Positions 1 to 5,409 of a stretch of DNA of 64,000 nt are shown in pieces. The notes under the pieces are model-generated. The model was not told where the DNA came from, did no database searches, and saw nothing but the letters and a program-made list of their open reading frames with translations. Source of the DNA: Enterobacteria phage XTG1. The position numbers and the translations under genes are program-made. Numbering within the stretch: the stretch's first letter is position 1; each line of letters opens with the position of its first letter. The stretch lies in sequence record KT184316.1; one strand, given 5' to 3'.

Positions 1-22
1 CTCCAACAGAGACCAAATTAAT

Positions 23-97
23 GTTCCAGTAGACAAAACGGTAAAGTCACCACTCTTTCAAAGTGGATATTTGAGGGTTCAAATCCCTTCTGGAACG
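23..97 (+). tRNA. tRNA-Glu (anticodon TTC)
   Basis: Manual cloverleaf: acceptor gttccag/ctggaac, anticodon loop ctttcaa, T-loop ttcaaat, CCA follows. Confidence 0.7.
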
Positions 98-192
98 CCA
101 GTTTTGACAGAAGACCAATTACAGCAAACTTAATCTTATTCATCTGAAGGTAAATCGGACAAAGAAGAGATTTGGTCTGGTCATTAAGAATT

Positions 193-264
193 GCGGGTAT
201 AGAGAAAGGGCGTCTCACATGTCTCATTAGCATGGTATCGGCAGGTTCGACTCCTGCACCCGCC
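193..264 (+). tRNA. tRNA with CAT anticodon (Met or Ile2), slightly atypical
   Basis: Acceptor gcgggt/acccgc, D-stem gaga/tctc, anticodon loop ctcatta, T-arm gcagg-ttcgact-cctgc; position 37 is T. Confidence 0.5.
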
Positions 265-347
265 TCCAATTTTGCAGAAGACCGTTTACAGCAACAAAAT
301 ACTTTTTGCGGATAAAAGAAAAAAAACACGGTCTGGCAATGTATTAA

Positions 348-421
348 GGTTAGGAAGCACATAAGGTATGTGCGGTCGCCTGTTAAGCGAATGGCACAGG
401 GTTCGAATCCCTGACTAACCG
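348..421 (+). tRNA. tRNA-Asn (anticodon GTT)
   Basis: Acceptor ggttagg/actaacc, D-stem gcac/gtgc, anticodon loop ctgttaa, T-arm caggg-ttcgaat-ccctg, CCA encoded. Confidence 0.7.
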
Positions 422-432
422 CCAAATTAAAT

Positions 433-517
433 GTGTCGTTATCCCGTAGATGGTAGCGGTGGGGACTGTAAATCCCTTGTCATTGAGACTCGGTAGGTTC
501 GACTCCTACACGGCACA
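433..517 (+). tRNA. tRNA-Tyr (anticodon GTA), long variable arm
   Basis: 85 nt; anticodon stem-loop gggga-ctgtaaa-tccct; T-arm gtagg-ttcgact-cctac; CCA encoded. Confidence 0.65.
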
Positions 518-526
518 CCAAATAAA

Positions 527-601
527 GGTTATGTAGTTTAATCTGGTTAAAATACTCCCCTGTCACGGGAGATGATGAGGGTTCAAATCCCTTCGTAACC
601 G
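527..601 (+). tRNA. tRNA-Asp (anticodon GTC)
   Basis: Acceptor ggttatg/cgtaacc, anticodon stem-loop ctccc-ctgtcac-gggag, T-arm gaggg-ttcaaat-ccctt, CCA encoded. Confidence 0.7.
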
Positions 602-840
602 CCAAATTATAATAAGTATTTCAAAATGATGTTTGAGAGGGCTATTTTAGCCCCTCCCTTAAAGAGTTCTTACGAGTATTCTTTAAAGGAGCAGAAGACC
701 AAATTCAGCAAGTACGTATGATATTTTCAAGCCAATTTAATTTTGAAAAAATTTATAAAACTTGGTCTGGCTCAACAATTTTACAGAAGACCGTTTACAG
801 CAAAACTTAAACAATCTATTTCTCCGGTAAAGAAAAGGCG

Positions 841-884
841 AAGGTTCGATTCCTTCACTCGGCAGATGTCGAGTTGGTGTAATG
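841..884 (+). pseudogene. tRNA-like fragments in permuted order (3' half directly followed by a 5' half); possible pseudo-tRNA or split/permuted tRNA
   Basis: aaggttcgattcctt-cactcggca (T-arm plus 3' acceptor strand) lies 3 nt upstream of gtcgagt-tg-gtgtaatggtagcac (5' acceptor strand plus D-arm); the two acceptor strands are complementary; no complete cloverleaf found. Confidence 0.3.
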
Positions 885-917
885 GTAGCACTTAAGATGA
901 TAAACAACGGTCTGGTA

Positions 918-1059
918 ATTATCTTTGTAGATAAGTTATTAAGCTTACCTGTGAGTATGCGACCACAAAGGGTGAAAGGGTAAATTCTAGATTTAAACCC
1001 AAAAAGGCACATCGCTACAGACCTTAAGCAAGTCTGGGTAGCTTATCTACAAAGATAAT
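918..1059 (+). ncRNA. Long hairpin element closed by an 18-bp perfect inverted repeat; candidate small structured RNA in the tRNA cluster
   Basis: attatctttgtagataag at 918-935 is the exact reverse complement of cttatctacaaagataat at 1042-1059; 106-nt interior. Confidence 0.35.
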
Positions 1060-1065
1060 TTAATG

Positions 1066-1137
1066 GAAGTGTAGCAGAATGGTGATGCGGCAGACTTTTA
1101 ATCTGACAGGCGATGGGTTCGAATCCCTCCACTTCTA
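1066..1137 (+). tRNA. tRNA-Lys (anticodon TTT)
   Basis: Acceptor ggaagtg/cacttct, anticodon loop cttttaa, T-loop ttcgaat, CCA encoded. Confidence 0.6.
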
Positions 1138-1218
1138 CCAAATTCACCCTTAACTGAGAAACACCTGCGCGGCTGGAAACACCCACTCAACAGTTTCTCT
1201 AACTAGGGTACTTATTCT

Positions 1219-1292
1219 GGTTCAGTCGCAGATAAGGTAATGCAAGGGTCTCATAAGCCCTATGAATGTGGGTTCGATTCCCATCTGAACCT
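1219..1292 (+). tRNA. tRNA-Met (anticodon CAT)
   Basis: Acceptor ggttcag/ctgaacc perfect, anticodon stem-loop agggt-ctcataa-gccct, T-arm gtggg-ttcgatt-cccat. Confidence 0.7.
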
Positions 1293-1296
1293 CCAA

Positions 1297-1369
1297 GCTG
1301 GTATAGTTAAGAAGGTTATAACACTCCCCTGATAAGGGAACATCGGTGGTTCGATTCCACCTACCAGTA
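1297..1369 (+). tRNA. tRNA-Ile (anticodon GAT)
   Basis: Anticodon stem-loop ctccc-ctgataa-ggga, T-arm ggtgg-ttcgatt-ccacc, CCA encoded. Confidence 0.65.
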
Positions 1370-1387
1370 CCAATTTCAATAAAGTTG

Positions 1388-1416
1388 TTGACATTGAGAT
1401 GTGACTACTTTATAGT
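1388..1416 (+). promoter_or_regulatory. Sigma70-like promoter (TTGACA, 17-bp spacer, TATAGT) inside the tRNA cluster
   Basis: ttgaca at 1388-1393, 17-nt spacer, tatagt at 1411-1416. Confidence 0.5.
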
Positions 1417-1618
1417 AACCTTAGTTTTCGTTGCGTAGCGTCTATTTTGCAAATTTAAAATAAATGCAAACGACAATGTTTTTCTGGCAGTAGCTTGATA
1501 GGCTAAACACCAGTGAGGTCTTCCAATCCCTCATCAAAGAATTTGGCGTACTCGCCCACGGTATGATTAATAAGGTGGGCATCTTTAAGGGCTTTCTAAG
1601 AGAGTCTTTAAAGATAAT

Positions 1619-1692
1619 GCACCCTTAGTTCAATTGGATAGAGCAACGGTCTTCTAAATCGTTAGTTACAGGTTCGAATCCTGTAGGGTGTA
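1619..1692 (+). tRNA. tRNA-Arg (anticodon TCT)
   Basis: Acceptor gcaccct/agggtgt, anticodon stem-loop acggt-cttctaa-atcgt, T-arm acagg-ttcgaat-cctgt, CCA encoded. Confidence 0.7.
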
Positions 1693-1837
1693 CCAAATAG
1701 TTAGCAGATTACTTAGACGGCCTTAGTGGGTCTTCCTGTAGGGAGGTGGTCTGTATCTCATGTTTTCCAGAACATGTAAATAATCTGAGAAGAAGCTTGA
1801 CAGTGTTGAGATAACAGGGTAAGCTTCGAATTATAAT

Positions 1838-1917
1838 ATGGGACGATGTTAAGACTCTAAGGCATGAGCAACGGCCTCCAAAACCGTTTCAAAGGGGTTC
1901 AACTCCTCCGTCCCATG
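1838..1917 (+). tRNA. Atypical tRNA-like gene, possibly tRNA-Trp (anticodon CCA) with an extended D region
   Basis: Perfect acceptor atgggac/gtcccat, T-loop ttcaact, GCCA after; loop ctccaaa on stem acgg/ccgt; about 7 extra nt between acceptor and anticodon stem. Confidence 0.4.
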
Positions 1918-1933
1918 CCAAAGTCTTATTAGG

Positions 1934-2021
1934 GGTAGGTAGCGGCTAATGGTAGCCAAACTGTCTTGAAAACAGTTGCCACTGTAGAGATACGGTGAGG
2001 GTTCGACTCCTTTACTTACCG
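1934..2021 (+). tRNA. tRNA-Ser (anticodon TGA), type II with long variable arm
   Basis: 88 nt; acceptor ggtaggt/acttacc; anticodon stem-loop actgt-cttgaaa-acagt; T-arm gaggg-ttcgact-ccttt; flanked by inverted repeat cttattagg/cctaataag. Confidence 0.65.
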
Positions 2022-2176
2022 CCTAATAAGATTTACTCCGTCCATGCTTGTTCGCATTGTCGGTTTATCCCTCGTGTATTGTCGTACACTGTCAAAGCAC
2101 CTAGTAGGTGTCACGGAGAAGAGATAATATCAAGCTCTCCAAAGGTTCTAGTCACCGGATTAAACAAGACTATGCA

Positions 2177-2198
2177 AAGACCTAAATAGGTCTTTTTA
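2177..2198 (+). terminator. Hairpin plus T-run, terminator-like
   Basis: aagacct-aaat-aggtctt followed by ttttt. Confidence 0.35.
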
Positions 2199-2276
2199 GA
2201 GGGCTTCTAAGGTTATTACAGCTTGTTGTGGAGCCTTGTTGCTTAGGTTCTTAGAAGTTCTCTAAAAAGATTTAAT

Positions 2277-2350
2277 GCACCTATAGCCCAACTGGTAGAG
2301 GCAGCAGACTTAGAATCTGCTCAGTGTGAGTTCGAATCTCTCTAGGTGTA
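2277..2350 (+). tRNA. tRNA with TAG anticodon (Leu-type) but short variable arm
   Basis: Acceptor gcaccta/taggtgt, anticodon stem-loop gcaga-cttagaa-tctgc, T-loop ttcgaat, A73, CCA encoded; 74 nt. Confidence 0.55.
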
Positions 2351-2360
2351 CCAAATTAAT

Positions 2361-2433
2361 GCAGGTGTAGCAAAATGGTTATGCGGCTGACTCTTAATCA
2401 GTAAGACGATGGGTTCAATTCCCTCCACCTGTA
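2361..2433 (+). tRNA. tRNA-Lys (anticodon CTT)
   Basis: Acceptor gcaggtg/cacctgt, anticodon loop ctcttaa, T-loop ttcaatt, CCA encoded. Confidence 0.6.
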
Positions 2434-2442
2434 CCAAACAAT

Positions 2443-2515
2443 GGGGTCATAGTTTATATGGTTAAAATTCGAGTTTTGCAAACTTGGGAACCGAGTTCAA
2501 TTCTCGGTGACTCCA
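2443..2515 (+). tRNA. tRNA-Ala (anticodon TGC)
   Basis: Acceptor ggggtca/tgactcc with G3:U70; anticodon stem-loop cgagt-tttgcaa-acttg; T-arm ccgag-ttcaatt-ctcgg; CCA encoded. Confidence 0.65.
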
Positions 2516-2524
2516 CCAATTAGT

Positions 2525-2596
2525 GCATCCATAGTTTAAACGGGAAAATTACAGTCTTCCAAACTGAGGTTGAGGGTTCGATTCCCTCTGGATGCT
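2525..2596 (+). tRNA. tRNA-Gly (anticodon TCC)
   Basis: Acceptor gcatcca/tggatgc perfect, anticodon loop cttccaa, T-arm gaggg-ttcgatt-ccctc, CCA encoded. Confidence 0.7.
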
Positions 2597-2606
2597 CCAA
2601 ATTAAT

Positions 2607-2679
2607 GCTCCTATCGTATAATTGGTTATTACGGTTGCCTTGTAAGCAACTTATCAGGGTTCGAGTCCTTGTGGGAGCA
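2607..2679 (+). tRNA. tRNA-Thr (anticodon TGT)
   Basis: Acceptor gctccta/tgggagc, anticodon stem-loop gttgc-cttgtaa-gcaac, T-arm caggg-ttcgagt-ccttg, CCA encoded. Confidence 0.7.
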
Positions 2680-2778
2680 CCAATTCAGAGGTCAAGTGAA
2701 AGACCGCTTTGAGTCAACTGAAGACCGTAACAAATTCCACGGAGTTGAGTTAGCGGCACAACTCCAGACCTCTTTCAT

Positions 2779-2850
2779 ACTCGCTTAGTTTATATGGTAA
2801 AACATCACCCTTACAAGATGAAGAAAAAGGTTCAAGTCCTTTAGTGAGTA
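2779..2850 (+). tRNA. tRNA-Val (anticodon TAC)
   Basis: Acceptor actcgct/agtgagt, D-stem gttt/aaac, anticodon loop cttacaa (one C-A mismatch in stem), T-arm aaagg-ttcaagt-ccttt, CCA encoded. Confidence 0.6.
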
Positions 2851-2854
2851 CCAT

Positions 2855-2929
2855 GTTCCAGTATCCCAATTGGCAGAGGATGCAAGCTCAAACCTTGTAT
2901 TAGTGACGGTTCGAATCCGTCTTGGAACA
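2855..2929 (+). tRNA. tRNA with CAA anticodon (Leu-type) but short variable arm
   Basis: Acceptor gttccag/ttggaac, D-loop aattggcaga, anticodon stem-loop gcaag-ctcaaac-cttgt, T-arm gacgg-ttcgaat-ccgtc, A73, CCA encoded. Confidence 0.55.
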
Positions 2930-2937
2930 CCAATTTT

Positions 2938-3010
2938 GCAGGATTAGTTCAAATGGAAAGAGCAACAGTCTACGAAGCTGTTAATAGGGGTTCGAATCCC
3001 TTATCCTGCG
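2938..3010 (+). tRNA. tRNA-Arg (anticodon ACG)
   Basis: Acceptor gcaggat/atcctgc perfect, anticodon stem-loop acagt-ctacgaa-gctgt, T-arm agggg-ttcgaat-ccctt, CCA encoded. Confidence 0.7.
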
Positions 3011-3030
3011 CCAGATAAAAAGGTGATACT

Positions 3031-3273
3031 ATGCAAACATTAACAGTAGTTGAACATGAAAACTGTGAGAGTATTGAGTTTGTCAGGGTCATTGGTGTTG
3101 AACACCACATTTTCTTAAAAGTGGGATACTTATGTGACCCCGCTAGAGTAGAAAGATTTATACGTGATTGTTTTGGTGGTAGACATCTGAAGAGTGTTAT
3201 TTTTGAGACAGTTTTACCAGAAGGTTTAGAAACGAATAATAACATTTACCTCCTTACGAGGATTAGACAATGA
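3031..3273 (+). CDS. Hypothetical protein (80 aa) embedded in tRNA cluster
   Basis: ORF with RBS aaggtga 7 nt upstream of ATG; stop overlaps next start (ATGA). Confidence 0.5.
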   Translation: MQTLTVVEHENCESIEFVRVIGVEHHIFLKVGYLCDPARVERFIRDCFGGRHLKSVIFETVLPEGLETNNNIYLLTRIRQ

Positions 3274-3827
3274 GATACTTAAAGTATGCTTCATGGATTT
3301 TCTTAGCTTTGTTAGAGCCATTTGCAGCAATCTTAGCAGTTATCTTAGCACCTTTTGTAGTTCCATTCTACAGTGAGAAGAAAGGACACTTACCTTTCGG
3401 GTTCAGATGGATGGAGACATATGACAACCCAATTGATGGTGATGAAGGTCACTTTAAAAGATGGGCTAATATTAGATGGATTGGTAAACTAGGCGTCTAC
3501 ATGCAAAGAGTCGGATGGCTCTGGAGAAACAAAGCTTATAACTTCTCTTACCATGTATTAGGAAGAGATGTAAAAGATGTTACTAAGTGGAAAGGTAATA
3601 TCAACGTAAGTTCTGACCCTGAAGATAATCAGACTGGTTATCTCCTAATGTGGAACAGTAATGCTTGGGGATTATTCGCCTTTATCCCATCAATTAAAGT
3701 CTTTGGTAAACAGTTTTACTGGAGAATTTATATTGGATGGAAACTAAAAAGTGTTGTCCCAGAAGAAAGAGCATTCTCAAGGGAAAGAGTTATGTTGGCA
3801 TTCTTTATTCATCCACTGAGAAAGTAA
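3270..3827 (+). CDS. Hypothetical membrane protein (185 aa)
   Basis: RBS gagga upstream; N-terminal hydrophobic stretch WIFLALLEPFAAILAVILAPFVVPF; translationally coupled to upstream ORF. Confidence 0.55.
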   Translation: MRYLKYASWIFLALLEPFAAILAVILAPFVVPFYSEKKGHLPFGFRWMETYDNPIDGDEGHFKRWANIRWIGKLGVYMQRVGWLWRNKAYNFSYHVLGRDVKDVTKWKGNINVSSDPEDNQTGYLLMWNSNAWGLFAFIPSIKVFGKQFYWRIYIGWKLKSVVPEERAFSRERVMLAFFIHPLRK

Positions 3828-3835
3828 AGATTTAA

Positions 3836-3908
3836 AGGGGATTAGTTTACAAGGTTAAAACCTCGGTCTTTGAAATCGAAGAAGTTGGTTCAATTCCAAC
3901 ATCCCCCG
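3836..3908 (+). tRNA. tRNA-Gln (anticodon TTG)
   Basis: Anticodon stem-loop tcggt-ctttgaa-atcga, T-arm gttgg-ttcaatt-ccaac, CCA encoded. Confidence 0.65.
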
Positions 3909-3913
3909 CCAAT

Positions 3914-3989
3914 GCTCCATTACTCCAATTGGCAGAGAGGCCAGACTTAAAATCTGTGTTATGTATCGGTTCGAATCCGATATGGAGTA
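3914..3989 (+). tRNA. tRNA with TAA anticodon (Leu-type) but short variable arm
   Basis: Acceptor gctccat/atggagt, D-loop aattggcaga (paralog of 2855-2929), anticodon loop cttaaaa, T-arm atcgg-ttcgaat-ccgat, A73, CCA encoded. Confidence 0.55.
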
Positions 3990-3997
3990 CCAAATTT

Positions 3998-4070
3998 AGC
4001 GGTATAGCATAACTGGCAATGCAACAGTCTCTGAAGCTGTCCTATTAAGGTTCAAATCCTTATGCCGCTG
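3998..4070 (+). tRNA. tRNA-Gln (anticodon CTG)
   Basis: Acceptor agcggta/tgccgct, anticodon stem-loop acagt-ctctgaa-gctgt, T-arm taagg-ttcaaat-cctta, CCA encoded. Confidence 0.6.
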
Positions 4071-4104
4071 CCACTTCTAAGGATTCTTACGAGAGTCCTT
4101 AAAT

Positions 4105-4177
4105 GTGGCCTTATCATAAATGGTAATGACCCATGCTGTGAACATGGTCTATACGGGTTCAAATCCCGTAGGTCACC
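4105..4177 (+). tRNA. tRNA-His (anticodon GTG)
   Basis: Acceptor gtggcct/aggtcac, anticodon stem-loop ccatg-ctgtgaa-catgg, T-arm acggg-ttcaaat-cccgt, CCA encoded. Confidence 0.7.
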
Positions 4178-4185
4178 CCAATTTA

Positions 4186-4260
4186 TAGTCCAAGTAGCTT
4201 ATATGGTTAAAGCGCGTGTCTGAAAAACATGAGAAGAGGGTTCAAATCCCACTGGACTAC
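4186..4260 (+). tRNA. tRNA-Phe (anticodon GAA)
   Basis: Acceptor tagtcca/tggacta perfect, anticodon stem-loop cgtgt-ctgaaaa-acatg, T-loop ttcaaat. Confidence 0.65.
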
Positions 4261-4278
4261 CAATTTCAAAGGTGCTTA

Positions 4279-5013
4279 ATGAAAGAGATGACAGAACAAG
4301 GTAAGGAGATTTTTAATCTCTTAAAAACCGGTAGAGGGTTTTCTAATCCCCTTATTACTGGTGCAGCAGTTCTCGGTGGAACCGTAGCTGCCTCTACATC
4401 ACTTGTAAGTTCTATTAGCTCTGTAACAGACCCTACAATGAAGGAGAAACTTGTTGCTGCTGGACTTACAACAGTCCTTCTAAACAGCTTTACAACAAGC
4501 CTTACAAGCACTACAGCGACTACTAAGACCTTAACAGACTATGGTCAAAAGTCTATTGATGAGTTTTCATCACGTATGCAGGTAGCAAAGGGGTATTCCA
4601 ATGTTATGGGTGCAGCAGGGGAACAAGTTGGCTGTACACCGTTTAGTGGTATTATGGGCGTTGCTACAGAATATGGTCAAAAAGCTATTGACACAATTAA
4701 CAGTGCACTAGATGTCGTTAATGATGTATTAAGTGACTTACAAGATGCTATTGACAAAGGTCTTGATACTATTTCTGATTTAGCTAACCAAGCTGTTAGT
4801 AAGATTAATGAAGGTATTTCGAAGATTACAGCTTATGCAGATGAAGTTGTGCAGATGATTGAAGAAGAAGCTGCTCTTATTGCAGAGTACCTTAAAACGA
4901 ATATCAATGGGTTCTTAGCAGGTATCTTACCAGACTGGTTTGATGATGCTTGTAAAACTGGTGTGATTGACACTATTGCAACACCAGAAATGAAGAACGC
5001 ATTACAGAAATAA
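4279..5013 (+). CDS. Hypothetical protein (244 aa, Ser/Thr/Ala-rich); start refined to ATG 4279
   Basis: Track ORF 4216-5013 begins inside tRNA-Phe; in-frame ATG at 4279 has RBS aaagg upstream (MKEMTEQ...). Confidence 0.55.
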   Translation: MKEMTEQGKEIFNLLKTGRGFSNPLITGAAVLGGTVAASTSLVSSISSVTDPTMKEKLVAAGLTTVLLNSFTTSLTSTTATTKTLTDYGQKSIDEFSSRMQVAKGYSNVMGAAGEQVGCTPFSGIMGVATEYGQKAIDTINSALDVVNDVLSDLQDAIDKGLDTISDLANQAVSKINEGISKITAYADEVVQMIEEEAALIAEYLKTNINGFLAGILPDWFDDACKTGVIDTIATPEMKNALQK

Positions 5014-5014
5014 T

Positions 5015-5104
5015 GGAAGATTAACCCTAAAAGGTAAGGGAGCAGTTTGCTAAACTGCCAGTAGCTGAGAAATCGGTGTACCAGTTCAAGTCTGGTATCT
5101 TCCT
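5015..5104 (+). tRNA. tRNA-Ser (anticodon GCT), type II with long variable arm
   Basis: 90 nt; acceptor ggaagat/atcttcc perfect; anticodon stem-loop gcagt-ttgctaa-actgc; T-arm accag-ttcaagt-ctggt; CCA encoded. Confidence 0.7.
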
Positions 5105-5111
5105 CCAATTT

Positions 5112-5184
5112 GAATCCGTGACAGAAATGGCTATGTGCCTGTCTGCAAAACAGGTTTATAAGGGTTCGAGTCCCTTCGGATTCT
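5112..5184 (+). tRNA. tRNA-Cys (anticodon GCA)
   Basis: Acceptor gaatccg/cggattc perfect, anticodon stem-loop cctgt-ctgcaaa-acagg, T-arm aaggg-ttcgagt-ccctt, CCA encoded. Confidence 0.7.
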
Positions 5185-5349
5185 CCAAGTTATTTTACTC
5201 TCTCTCAATTAAAATAATAATAATGCCCTGCTATAAGTATTCTTCCTTTCGCTACCGAAGAGTATTTTTAGACAGGGCTTTTTTACAGAGCTATACTTTA
5301 TAAGAAGACTTATACAGTATGTCTCTGACGTACATTGTGGTTTCTCCTT

Positions 5350-5373
5350 GACGGTCTCTGTGCCGTCTTTTTT
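5350..5373 (+). terminator. Rho-independent terminator closing the tRNA region
   Basis: gacgg-tctctgtg-ccgtc followed by tttttt. Confidence 0.6.
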
Positions 5374-5409
5374 AAGGGGAAACATGGTTAATTATTTGGA
5401 GAAAACATA

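Follow-up and report, generated by a model that had tools for sequence, protein, structure and literature searches.

Three leucine tRNA genes with short variable loops in the tRNA cluster of Enterobacteria phage XTG1 are probable isoacceptors of a type I lineage found in phages

Three genes with Leu anticodons in the tRNA cluster of Enterobacteria phage XTG1 lack the long variable arm, and we think it probable that they are working Leu isoacceptors of a type I lineage that circulates among phages and that they are charged by the host LeuRS. The window analyzed is a stretch of 64,000 nucleotides (KT184316.1). The three genes would be transcribed during infection together with the other genes of the cluster and their products charged by the host LeuRS; the UAA and CAA tRNAs would then decode UUA and UUG, and the UAG tRNA would decode CUA, CUG, and probably CUU, codons favoured much more strongly by this AT-rich phage than by its host. 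From the sequence, we infer expression, charging with leucine by the LeuRS of E. coli or Salmonella, and use on the ribosome.

The features are listed in Table 1. The Rfam alignments of the three Leu genes cover model positions 1-71, with scores to be compared with a gathering score of 29 bits and E-values of 1e-7 to 1e-11. The ends given by ARAGORN include an encoded CCA, and the ends read in the first-pass annotation, which was made from the letters alone (2350, 2929, and 3989), are the discriminator bases; without CCA, the UAG, CAA, and UAA genes are 74, 75, and 76 nt long. All three form canonical cloverleaves with intact anticodon loops (CUUAGAA, CUCAAAC, and CUUAAAA in the Rfam alignments) carrying U33 and R37, and with the T loop UUCGAAU. 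The UAG gene has a 3-bp D stem and the 11-nt D loop CAACUGGUAGA (caactggtaga), and the D loop CAAUUGGCAGA (caattggcaga) is common to the CAA and UAA genes. One mismatch was seen in the UAG gene (U50-U64) and one in the UAA gene (C27-U43). The thermodynamic minimum fold of the UAA gene is not a cloverleaf, and folding z-scores were unremarkable.

Table 1: Features of the tRNA cluster and its surroundings in the window.
Feature	Coordinates	Strand	Basis
3' end of tRNA-Pro(TGG), truncated at window start	1..15	+	wV8 match
tRNA cluster, 25 genes	23..5187	+	ARAGORN; RF00005 for 23 genes
tRNA-Tyr(GUA), type II, 15-nt variable arm, internal comparator	433..520	+	ARAGORN
Putative sigma-70-like promoter in cluster	1388..1416	+	TTGACA, 17 nt, TATAGT; consensus match
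tRNA-Ser(UGA), type II, 19-nt variable arm, internal comparator	1934..2023	+	ARAGORN
tRNA-Leu(UAG), type I	2277..2353	+	ARAGORN, RF00005 57.3 bits
tRNA-Leu(CAA), type I	2855..2932	+	ARAGORN, RF00005 44.0 bits
tRNA-Leu(UAA), type I	3914..3992	+	ARAGORN, RF00005 47.5 bits
tRNA-Ser(GCU), type II, 21-nt variable arm, internal comparator	5015..5107	+	ARAGORN
Terminator-like hairpin and T run, right after last tRNA	5350..5375	+	consensus match only

Counted in the Rfam alignments as the nucleotides that separate the anticodon stem from the T stem, the variable loop has 5 nt in the UAG gene (UCAGU), 6 nt in the CAA gene (AUUAGU), and 7 nt in the UAA gene (GUUAUGU); ARAGORN counts 4, 5, and 7 nt. No stem is possible in any of them. 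The canonical type I variable region has 4-5 nt (PMC2377443), and above 10 nt a tRNA counts as type II (PMC6614811). With a short variable region devoid of a helix the three genes are type I, the 6- and 7-nt loops lying slightly above the canonical length, and none has the stem-loop arm of more than 10 nt of a type II tRNALeu. The first-pass annotation had described these short loops, the retention of A73 in all three genes, the D loop shared by two of them, and the long arms of the Tyr and both Ser tRNAs, and it had found no type II Leu tRNA; each of these points holds, the last one for the window as searched by ARAGORN.

The identity set of the E. coli LeuRS comprises A73, A14, A15-U48, G18G19, A20a, and the tertiary pairs that join the D loop to the T loop; the anticodon and the long arm are both unnecessary, and arm-less E. 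coli tRNALeu variants remain active (PMC9976931, PMC6614811). Every element of this set that can be read from a sequence is present in the three Leu genes. They have U8, A14, and A15, and the last base of the variable loop is U in all three, so that A15-U48 is allowed; the tertiary pairs U8-A14 and A15-U48 are thus predicted. G18G19 and A20a lie in an 11-nt loop closed by a 3-bp D stem, and the T-loop partners U54, U55, C56, and A58 are in place. The D arm reads U8, the 3-bp stem, an unpaired 13-22, and then A14 A15 Y Y G18 G19 Y A20a G A, and it aligns without gaps with all five E. coli tRNALeu species. Among the 25 cluster tRNAs, this D arm occurs together with A73 in the three Leu genes alone. 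The isotype scoring that the first-pass annotation had proposed, done with anticodon-masked profiles, ranked Leu first for all three, by small margins (40.3 versus 36.7, 12.1 versus 9.1, and 25.8 versus 25.6 bits for Leu versus the next isotype). G3-U70 is absent from the three genes, which makes alanine identity unlikely.

All eight tRNALeu genes of E. coli K-12 (leuQPVT, leuU, leuW, leuX, and leuZ) are type II, with 85-87 nt and a stem-loop variable arm of 13-15 nt, whereas the phage genes have 5-7 nt at this place. The two sets share D-arm architecture and register, A73, A14, A15-U48, G18G19, A20a, and the T loop, and UAG, CAA, and UAA anticodons occur in both. They differ in that position 13 is G or A and position 9 is G in the E. 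coli tRNAs, as against C13 and A9 in the phage genes, and the identity of the phage genes to arm-trimmed E. coli tRNALeu is 47-62%. The E. coli LeuRS is reported to charge arm-less tRNALeu if A73 and the tertiary core of the D and T loops are intact (Larkin et al. 2002; the SELEX of Asahara et al. 1998; both as summarized in PMC9976931). The phage genes keep A73 and this core as the engineered molecules do, although the latter are laboratory constructs derived from E. coli and the phage genes are natural, divergent, and known from sequence. Since LeuRS does not need the arm, its loss is most simply explained as tolerated.

Conservation points to purifying selection on the three Leu genes. Compared with phage wV8, they are identical at 225 of 225 positions, the UAG gene thus being 100% identical, whereas spacers are 94.4% and coding sequences 95.1% identical. 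The CAA gene is identical at 75 of 75 positions both in wV8 and in the Mooglevirus Sf13. Of 263 phage records, 215 have the UAA gene at an identity of at least 99%; over the 6-kb region, only 1 of 405 records attains this level. In Sf13, the UAG gene is replaced by an unrelated sequence that is likewise type I. The codon-usage comparison suggested in the first-pass annotation showed the phage to be richer than the host in UUA, CUA, and CUU and poorer in CUG: the 50 window ORFs use UUA 0.28, CUU 0.28, CUA 0.10, and CUG 0.16, and E. coli uses roughly UUA 0.13, CUU 0.10, CUA 0.04, and CUG 0.5. The overall share of Leu codons in these ORFs is normal, and the Leu anticodons match the excess of UUA, CUA, and CUU. 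A LeuRS homologue is absent from all Felixounavirus records.

We defined the type I tRNALeu lineage by a Leu anticodon, a short variable loop ending in U, a 3-bp D stem, a NAAYYGGYANA loop, and A73, and the three Leu genes fit this definition of a phage and actinobacterial family. Relatives were found in at least 120 IMG/VR loci, in Certrevirus, Aeromonas, and Vibrio phages (Certrevirus CR9, AhP_Mru1, and phi-Grn1 are examples) and in actinobacteriophages, with close relatives in Mycobacterium, Gordonia, and Streptomyces phages, and a genome scan showed single-copy chromosomal type I tRNALeu(UAA) genes to be widespread in Actinomycetota. The search pattern fixed AATTGGNA, and this in part dictates the invariance of A14, A15, G18, G19, and A20a among the tRNAs collected. 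A73 is present in 173 of the 179 viral type I Leu tRNAs. Outside their own genus, the nearest neighbours of the three Leu genes are type I Leu tRNAs (identity 0.71-0.80), the best non-Leu match having an identity of 0.62-0.68. With the chromosomal type I tRNALeu(UAA) of Nocardia and its relatives, the UAG gene shares 80% identity. The D arm of the tRNALeu(UAA) of Actinomycetota, AGCC-CAAUUGGCAGA-GGC, has the same D-loop sequence as the phage CAA and UAA genes and differs at two positions from the D loop of the UAG gene. A set of 98 IMG/VR type I Leu tRNAs, pairwise less than 80% identical, gave a cloverleaf with RNAalifold. Canonical pairs filled 98.3% of the pair cells, a share that fell to 57% when columns were shuffled and to 36-45% when partners were slid; each stem position showed 2-6 types of canonical pair, mostly at least 4, and the stems covary strongly. 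All 110 Ser and 36 Tyr tRNAs in the 120 viral loci kept their long arms. SerRS, and in part bacterial TyrRS, needs the long arm, and this fits its retention in Ser and Tyr tRNAs.

The first-pass annotation had called the three genes structurally unusual Leu isoacceptors. They are unusual for Enterobacteria, but the structure is not unique, since it has been described for Streptomyces (PMC6614811) and is widespread in phages and Actinomycetota. Short-arm tRNALeu is common in phages and Actinobacteria yet hardly discussed, and it is not a new kind of molecule. The known case is the type I tRNALeu(CAA) of Streptomyces coelicolor, found alongside one LeuRS only (Fan et al. 2019, PMC6614811). Like the phage genes, it has a Leu anticodon, a short (5-nt) variable loop, canonical D and T loops, and U8-A14; unlike them, it is chromosomal and carries C48, whereas the phage-borne genes have U48 together with A15. 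The E. coli LeuRS, described as charging type II only, did not charge the Streptomyces tRNA at all, and the Streptomyces enzyme needs a particular leucine-specific domain for it (PMC6614811). We suggest that C48 may explain the failure of the E. coli enzyme. The type I tRNALeu(UUR) of animal mitochondria, with identity resting mainly on A73 and A14 (PMC9976931), differs in that its body is weak and partly unfolded and that a mitochondrial LeuRS is dedicated to it; the D and T loops of the phage tRNAs are of the canonical bacterial kind. A further difference from Streptomyces is that the three isoacceptors are the only Leu tRNAs of the phage, and the hosts' own tRNALeu are all type II. Leu isoacceptors likewise lie within the large tRNA clusters of the virulent coliphages T5 and T4, but the T5 tRNALeu(UAG), with 85 nt, is type II, unlike the genes of the window. 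The T4 tRNALeu is also type II.

Other readings have to be weighed against that of working isoacceptors with a tolerated loss of the arm. The short arm could instead be a selected, phage-typical design that removes the feature by which a host factor (a nuclease, a toxin, or a modification enzyme) recognizes tRNALeu while everything LeuRS needs is kept. We regard this as unlikely; if true, the phage would decode Leu codons while the type II tRNALeu of the host is attacked or depleted, and the E. coli LeuRS would efficiently charge a natural type I tRNALeu, contrary to the published type-II-only statement. Slightly less likely still, the genes could encode real tRNAs that are poor substrates or non-substrates of the enterobacterial LeuRS, passengers from a mobile pool of phage tRNAs at home in type I hosts such as Actinomycetota and adding little to translation in E. 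coli or Salmonella. The failure of the E. coli enzyme on the Streptomyces tRNA, the closeness of the UAG gene to its Nocardia counterpart rather than to arm-trimmed E. coli tRNALeu, and the relatives in Mycobacterium, Gordonia, and Streptomyces phages all fit such passengers. They do not fit the finding that the genes are intact and nearly invariant in more than 250 enterobacterial phage genomes while the spacers diverge, nor that the Sf13 replacement is again type I, that the unrelated CR9, AhP_Mru1, and phi-Grn1 also carry type I Leu genes, that A15-U48 is kept in line with the E. coli rule, and that these phages have no type II Leu gene as a substitute.

A role of phage tRNAs in countering anticodon nucleases is known, and eukaryotic Schlafen nucleases are reported to pick out type II tRNAs. 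By analogy with these two systems, the three tRNAs could have a non-decoding role as decoys or replacements that blunt a tRNA-directed nuclease or toxin of the host, the short arm letting them escape or trap it. We hold this to be improbable: full cloverleaves, encoded CCA, U33/R37 loops, and codon-matched anticodons are expected for decoding but unnecessary for a decoy, nothing in the window points to a nuclease or toxin decoy system, and a literature search yielded no bacterial nuclease with known selectivity for the variable arm of tRNALeu. That the three tRNAs are charged with a different amino acid, so that UUR and CUN codons are recoded, is more improbable again. The small isotype margins and the loss of the long arm, one of the classic Leu hallmarks, would agree with it. 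The anticodons are those of Leu, however, and apart from LeuRS, SerRS, and AlaRS, synthetases as a rule recognize the anticodon; SerRS, which requires the long arm, would meet its antideterminant A73, and AlaRS would lack G3-U70. Within the cluster, this D arm is found in the Leu genes only, every nearest neighbour is a Leu tRNA, and the Leu codon share is normal. That the anticodon register is wrong or the genes are decayed pseudogenes, for which nothing speaks beyond the caveat of the first-pass annotation itself, is refuted by the agreement of ARAGORN, the Rfam model, and the tRNAscan-SE annotation of the depositors of Shigella phage Sf13 (homologous genes given as tRNA-Leu TAG, CAA, and TAA), as well as by the E-values, the conservation, and the covariation. 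Judged by their identity elements, conservation, and covarying family, the three genes are real tRNAs.

Reviews treat the long variable arm of tRNALeu as universal except in animal mitochondria (PMC9976931), and the Streptomyces LeuRS has been called the only prokaryotic enzyme charging both tRNALeu types (PMC6614811). Type I tRNALeu are the sole Leu tRNAs of these coliphages, Salmonella phages, and Cronobacter phages. Should the host LeuRS charge them, natural type I substrates would exist for the E. coli enzyme, and the rule that A73 and the elbow suffice and the arm is dispensable would be confirmed by nature, beyond constructs; such compact Leu tRNAs could serve as scaffolds in suppressor or orthogonal tRNA work. 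If they are uncharged, hundreds of phages conserve three tRNAs for another purpose, which would be more surprising.

The window belongs to the genome of a Felixounavirus, a Felix O1-like E. coli phage, and its cluster region is 99.6% identical to that of Enterobacteria phage KhF3, also a Felixounavirus. ARAGORN placed all 25 tRNA genes on the + strand and found zero tRNA genes in the rest of the window; 23 exceed the gathering score of RF00005. The first-pass count of about 26 is reached by also counting the truncated Pro gene or a degenerate Trp-like sequence located at ~1838-1921. Its statement that there is no Pro tRNA fails: positions 1-15 (ctccaacagagacca) reproduce exactly the last bases of the tRNA-Pro annotated in wV8, where the gene is followed by the same spacer and tRNA-Glu as in the window, and the absence is therefore an artefact of the window edge. 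Three small ORFs and several structured spacers interrupt the cluster, and the putative promoter within it has 11 of 12 consensus matches. Four Y-RNA-like elements were seen at 104-920, adjoining a Ro60-like gene just beyond the window.

Megablast of the first 6,000 nt of the window against 50,697 phage records gave Enterobacteria phage KhF3 as the best match (99.6% over the full length), and the remainder of the 405 matching records were Felixounavirus, Mooglevirus and Suspvirus phages of Escherichia, Salmonella, Shigella and Citrobacter. By this similarity, the three tRNA-Leu genes, named here by anticodon as the UAG, CAA and UAA genes, are located in the well-known tRNA cluster of the Felix O1-like myoviruses (Ounavirinae). 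In the annotated relative wV8, the cluster is flanked by the gene of a 471-aa 'RNA-binding protein' and by that of the large terminase. Between 23 and 5187 ARAGORN found 25 tRNA genes, every one of them on the + strand; the rest of the 64 kb had none. Of these genes, 23 were above the gathering score of the Rfam tRNA model. The first-pass annotation had reported no Pro tRNA, which is correct for whole genes in the window but not for the cluster: the window starts inside tRNA-Pro(TGG), so the apparent absence is an edge effect and the cluster holds at least 26 tRNA genes.

Features of the tRNA cluster and matches to the permuted Y-RNA-like core in other viral contigs
Feature	Position	Strand	Basis or remark
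tRNA-Pro(TGG), 3' end, cut by window start	1-15		comparison with wV8
Y-RNA-like element, copy 1	104-186	+	shared boxes, covarying stems
Y-RNA-like element, copy 2	271-340	+	shared boxes, covarying stems
Y-RNA-like element, copy 3	688-776	+	shared boxes, covarying stems
Y-RNA-like element, copy 4	780-920	+	shared boxes, covarying stems
Sigma-70 promoter-like site, near-consensus (TTGACA, 17 nt, TATAGT), mid-cluster	1388-1416	+	consensus match
tRNA-Leu(UAG)	2277-2353	+	ARAGORN, Rfam; encoded CCA included
tRNA-Leu(CAA)	2855-2932	+	ARAGORN, Rfam; encoded CCA included
tRNA-Leu(UAA)	3914-3992	+	ARAGORN, Rfam; encoded CCA included
Terminator-like hairpin after last tRNA	5350-5375	+	consensus match
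Permuted-core match, viral contig L380	8407-8463		adjoins Ro60-like gene, 40-45% identity
Permuted-core match, viral contig L405	5441-5496		adjoins Ro60-like gene, 40-45% identity
Permuted-core match, viral contig L358	3597-3653		adjoins Ro60-like gene, 40-45% identity

The three genes with Leu anticodons had been described in the first-pass annotation as type I tRNAs, with the reservation that the anticodon register might be wrong. Both ARAGORN and the Rfam alignments recovered the genes at the same positions and placed the anticodon loops identically (CUUAGAA, CUCAAAC and CUUAAAA in the UAG, CAA and UAA genes); in the Rfam alignments this leaves 5, 6 and 7 nt between anticodon stem and T stem. 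The tRNAscan-SE calls of the depositors of Shigella phage Sf13 (Mooglevirus) are likewise tRNA-Leu TAG, CAA and TAA for the homologous genes, the CAA and UAA counterparts being near-identical to those of the window and the UAG counterpart equivalent by position. The long variable arms noticed earlier in Tyr and both Ser tRNAs were also confirmed (15, 19 and 21 nt). All eight tRNALeu genes of E. coli K-12 measure 85-87 nt and are thus type II.

All three Leu genes have a 7-bp acceptor stem, U8, A9, A73 and CCA, a 5-bp anticodon stem (6 bp counting 26-44, drawn by ARAGORN for two of them) with U33 and A37, a short variable loop that has U as its last base, and a 5-bp T stem that carries the T loop UUCGAAU. 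Their D arm consists of a 3-bp stem, an unpaired C13-A22 (non-canonical according to Rfam) and the 11-nt loop CAAYUGGYAGA. It aligns base for base and without gaps to the D arms of five E. coli tRNALeu species, with the shared frame U8, R9, 3 pairs, N13, A14 A15 Y16 Y17 G18 G19 Y20 A20a G A, 3 pairs. Among the 25 cluster tRNAs this Leu-type D arm is combined with A73 in the three Leu genes only. There are stem mismatches in the UAG gene (U50-U64) and in the UAA gene (C27-U43). Minimum-energy folding gave the cloverleaf for the UAG and CAA genes but not for the UAA gene, with z-scores of -0.2 to -1.8, a measure that is uninformative for tRNAs.

As outlined in the tRNA identity review PMC9976931 and in the introduction of PMC6614811, E. 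coli LeuRS depends on A73, A14 (with U8), A15-U48, G18G19 and A20a in the D loop and the D/T-loop tertiary pairs, while it can do without both the anticodon and an extended variable arm and arm-less variants of E. coli tRNALeu are still active. All of these determinants that can be read from sequence were found in the three phage tRNAs. A tblastn search with E. coli LeuS against the 50,697 phage records returned no LeuRS homologue in any Felixounavirus record; a phage-encoded LeuRS was rejected on this ground, and any charging must fall to the host enzyme. On this sequence evidence, the three genes are probably working Leu isoacceptors charged by the host LeuRS. The Leu profile also ranked first for all three genes, by narrow margins, when anticodon-masked and arm-trimmed profile HMMs of 19 isotypes (Asp not included), built from about 1,900 phage and bacterial tRNAs, were compared, which is consistent with the Leu assignment without being decisive.

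That the genes encode real tRNAs which are nevertheless poor substrates in hosts of the E. coli/Salmonella type seems unlikely to us; the main argument for it is that E. coli LeuRS, described as a type II-only enzyme, is reported not to have charged the Streptomyces type I tRNA at all (PMC6614811). The Streptomyces type I tRNALeu carries C48 (PMC6614811) and thus lacks the A15-U48 pair needed by E. coli LeuRS, whereas the phage Leu tRNAs carry U48; we infer that this difference may explain the failed charging. Besides charging by the host LeuRS, charging by other synthetases is a weak alternative, judging from the anticodons, which are those of Leu, and from the absence of the G3-U70 pair read by AlaRS. 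Most other synthetases recognise the anticodon, and SerRS requires the long arm and rejects A73. The phage would have retained the Ser and Tyr arms because SerRS, and in part bacterial TyrRS, needs a long arm whereas LeuRS does not. Non-decoding or non-leucine roles are improbable.

Short-arm tRNALeu genes were found in many other viruses. Unlike the Leu genes of phage XTG1, the tRNALeu of T5 is of type II (85 nt); type I genes occur in a T5-like Aeromonas phage, whose tRNALeu(UAA) measures 77 nt, and in Cronobacter phage CR9 (Vequintavirinae), where Leu(UAG) and Leu(CAA) are of this type and Tyr and Ser have long arms. By BLAST, full-length relatives of the CR9 gene at about 77-84% identity were present in Mycobacterium, Gordonia and Streptomyces phages, 248-kb Vibrio phages and Felixounaviruses. 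A scan of IMG/VR with a pattern that joined the Leu D-loop core to a YAR anticodon and, across a short spacer, to the T loop matched at least 120 loci. In the 120 loci listed, ARAGORN called 179 short-loop Leu tRNAs (166 unique), mostly within tRNA arrays. Of the 179, 173 carry A73, 178 have U as the last base of the variable loop, and 146 combine a 3-bp D stem and an 11-nt D loop. All 110 Ser and all 36 Tyr tRNAs in the same listed loci kept a long arm. When the spacer was relaxed to allow long arms, the short kind was seen in 25 of the first 120 loci listed.

RNAalifold gave a 7/3/5/5 cloverleaf for 98 of these short-loop Leu tRNAs with less than 80% mutual identity. Canonical pairs filled 98.3% of the pair cells in this alignment, compared to 57% in column shuffles and 36-45% with slid partners, and 2-6 canonical pair types occurred per position, at least 4 at most of them. 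Since AATTGGNA was fixed in the search pattern and only tRNAs with A73 were admitted to the 98-tRNA subset, the lack of variation at these positions is partly built in; no constraint was placed on U8, U48 or the stems.

The same pattern, run on one genome per GTDB species, matched at least 120 cellular loci. Of the 120 listed, 85 are single tRNAs; the others, from cyanobacteria and metagenome bins, are tRNA arrays. The single-tRNA loci inspected belong, like most listed records, to Actinomycetota (Nocardia, Mycobacterium, Gordonia, Rhodococcus and Herbiconiux) and are type I tRNALeu(UAA) with the D arm AGCC-CAAUUGGCAGA-GGC, whose D loop CAAUUGGCAGA is common to the CAA and UAA genes of the window. 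Examples of chromosomal single-copy tRNALeu(UAA) are the comparison loci L225 (Gordonia), L229 (Nocardia) and L230 (Mycobacterium). The published precedent is the type I tRNALeu(CAA) of Streptomyces coelicolor (PMC6614811); well beyond this case, a chromosomal type I tRNALeu(UAA) in single copy appears to be widespread in Actinomycetota. The UAG gene shares 80% identity with the actinobacterial genes and no more than 62% with any arm-trimmed E. coli tRNALeu, which argues that the phage genes are not recent host derivatives. Recent deletion of the arm from a host tRNALeu was ruled out, the arm-trimmed identity being only 47-62%. By sequence comparison, the phage genes fall within a lineage of type I tRNALeu that Actinomycetota share with many phages.

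Conservation of the Leu genes and the codon usage of the phage speak for function. Between wV8 and the window they are identical at 225 of 225 positions, as against 94.4% for the cluster spacers and 95.1% for the embedded ORFs, and 215 of 263 records have the UAA gene at 99% identity or more, whereas over the 6-kb region only one of 405 records is as close. Sf13 matches the window at 75/75 positions of the CAA gene and 75/76 of the UAA gene. At the UAG position Sf13 (locus L347, 3128-3205) has an unrelated sequence, with 40/74 identity to the window gene, which is again a short-arm tRNALeu(UAG) between conserved flanking tRNAs; this suggests that single tRNA genes are swapped like cassettes. 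Leu codon fractions in 50 ORFs of the window (47.5 kb) are UUA 0.28, CUU 0.28, CUG 0.16, UUG 0.13, CUA 0.10 and CUC 0.05. In E. coli, CUG makes up about half, and UUA, CUU and CUA are roughly 0.13, 0.10 and 0.04, so the three anticodons serve codons that the phage over-uses.

These genes have carried the label tRNA-Leu in GenBank records for years, and a type I tRNALeu as such is already known from animal mitochondria and from Streptomyces. The long arm of tRNALeu was still called universal outside animal mitochondria in a 2023 review (PMC9976931). A full-text literature search, whose coverage was partial so that absence is no proof, turned up no publication that deals with short-arm tRNALeu of phages or with the structure of Felix O1 tRNAs. 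What is apparently unpublished is that phages, even those of hosts with type II tRNALeu only, commonly carry the short-arm form.

Four Y-RNA-like elements are placed between the first tRNAs of the cluster. Their common frame, a 5' box CAGAAGACC-NN-TTN-CAGCAA with GGTCTGG as the 3' box, is matched four times against 0.03 expected by chance. The 4-bp outer stem varies in sequence yet is paired in all four copies (UGAC/GUCA, UUGC/GCAA, GAGC/GCUC and UUAC/GUAA); inward of it is a fixed asymmetric loop, AGA opposite G, and the inner stem covaries among copies (AGACCGU/ACGGUCU versus AGACCAA/UUGGUCU). Between phages the boxes are invariant and the interiors diverged; the stems covary here too, with a compensatory change in the outer stem of copy 2. 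Copy 4 encloses a circularly permuted tRNA-like domain composed of a T arm, a capped acceptor-like hairpin and a D arm, the order described for bacterial YrlA Y RNAs (PMC4201824). The elements had no Rfam match even at E <=10, and the exact box CAGAAGACC...GGTCTGG was not conserved outside Felixounavirus. A covariance model of the permuted core detected the same layout in three other viral contigs (E <=1e-5), with hairpin sequences that differ in a compensating manner. A match at 771-834 of comparison locus L009 was rejected as a false positive, being two adjacent tRNAs.

The 471-aa 'RNA-binding protein' of wV8, gp047 (L346, 1906-3321), is encoded immediately upstream of the window start, outside the window. 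It contains Pfam DUF2828 and DUF7788 and an invariant DxSxS MIDAS motif, and has more than 2,500 relatives, many of them in large phages. As a single sequence it had no sequence match in the PDB, and a profile search gave only a weak match to Ro60 (E 0.46), so a fold search was needed. The AlphaFold model, a confident one (pLDDT 89, pTM 0.88), was used with Foldseek; all 12 best PDB matches were Ro60/Rsr proteins, matched over the full length of gp047, and they include a Thermus phage Ro60 (E 2e-8 to 1e-6; TM 0.39-0.63, or 0.52-0.63 without D. radiodurans Rsr). Judged from the model, the Y-RNA-like elements probably have gp047 as their protein partner, and the whole looks like a phage Ro60 and Y-RNA module embedded in the tRNA cluster.

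The internal promoter-like site and the terminator-like hairpin suggest that the cluster may comprise more than one transcription unit. A degenerate tRNA-Trp-like sequence at about 1838-1921 (+) has the acceptor stem ATGGGAC/GTCCCAT with A1-U72 and G73-CCA, resembling E. coli tRNATrp, an anticodon loop CUCCAAA whose stem contains a C-A mismatch, a T arm and an oversized, aberrant D region. It was not called by ARAGORN and scored only 23 bits in Rfam (tRNA-Sec model, E 0.38); wV8 has a pseudo 'tRNA-OTHER' annotated at an apparently equivalent position. The tRNA-Ser(UGA) gene (1934-2023) differs from the other 24 genes in having CC followed by T and not the full CCA. The tRNA-Ser(GCU) gene (5015-5107) has U73; E. 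coli tRNASer has G73.
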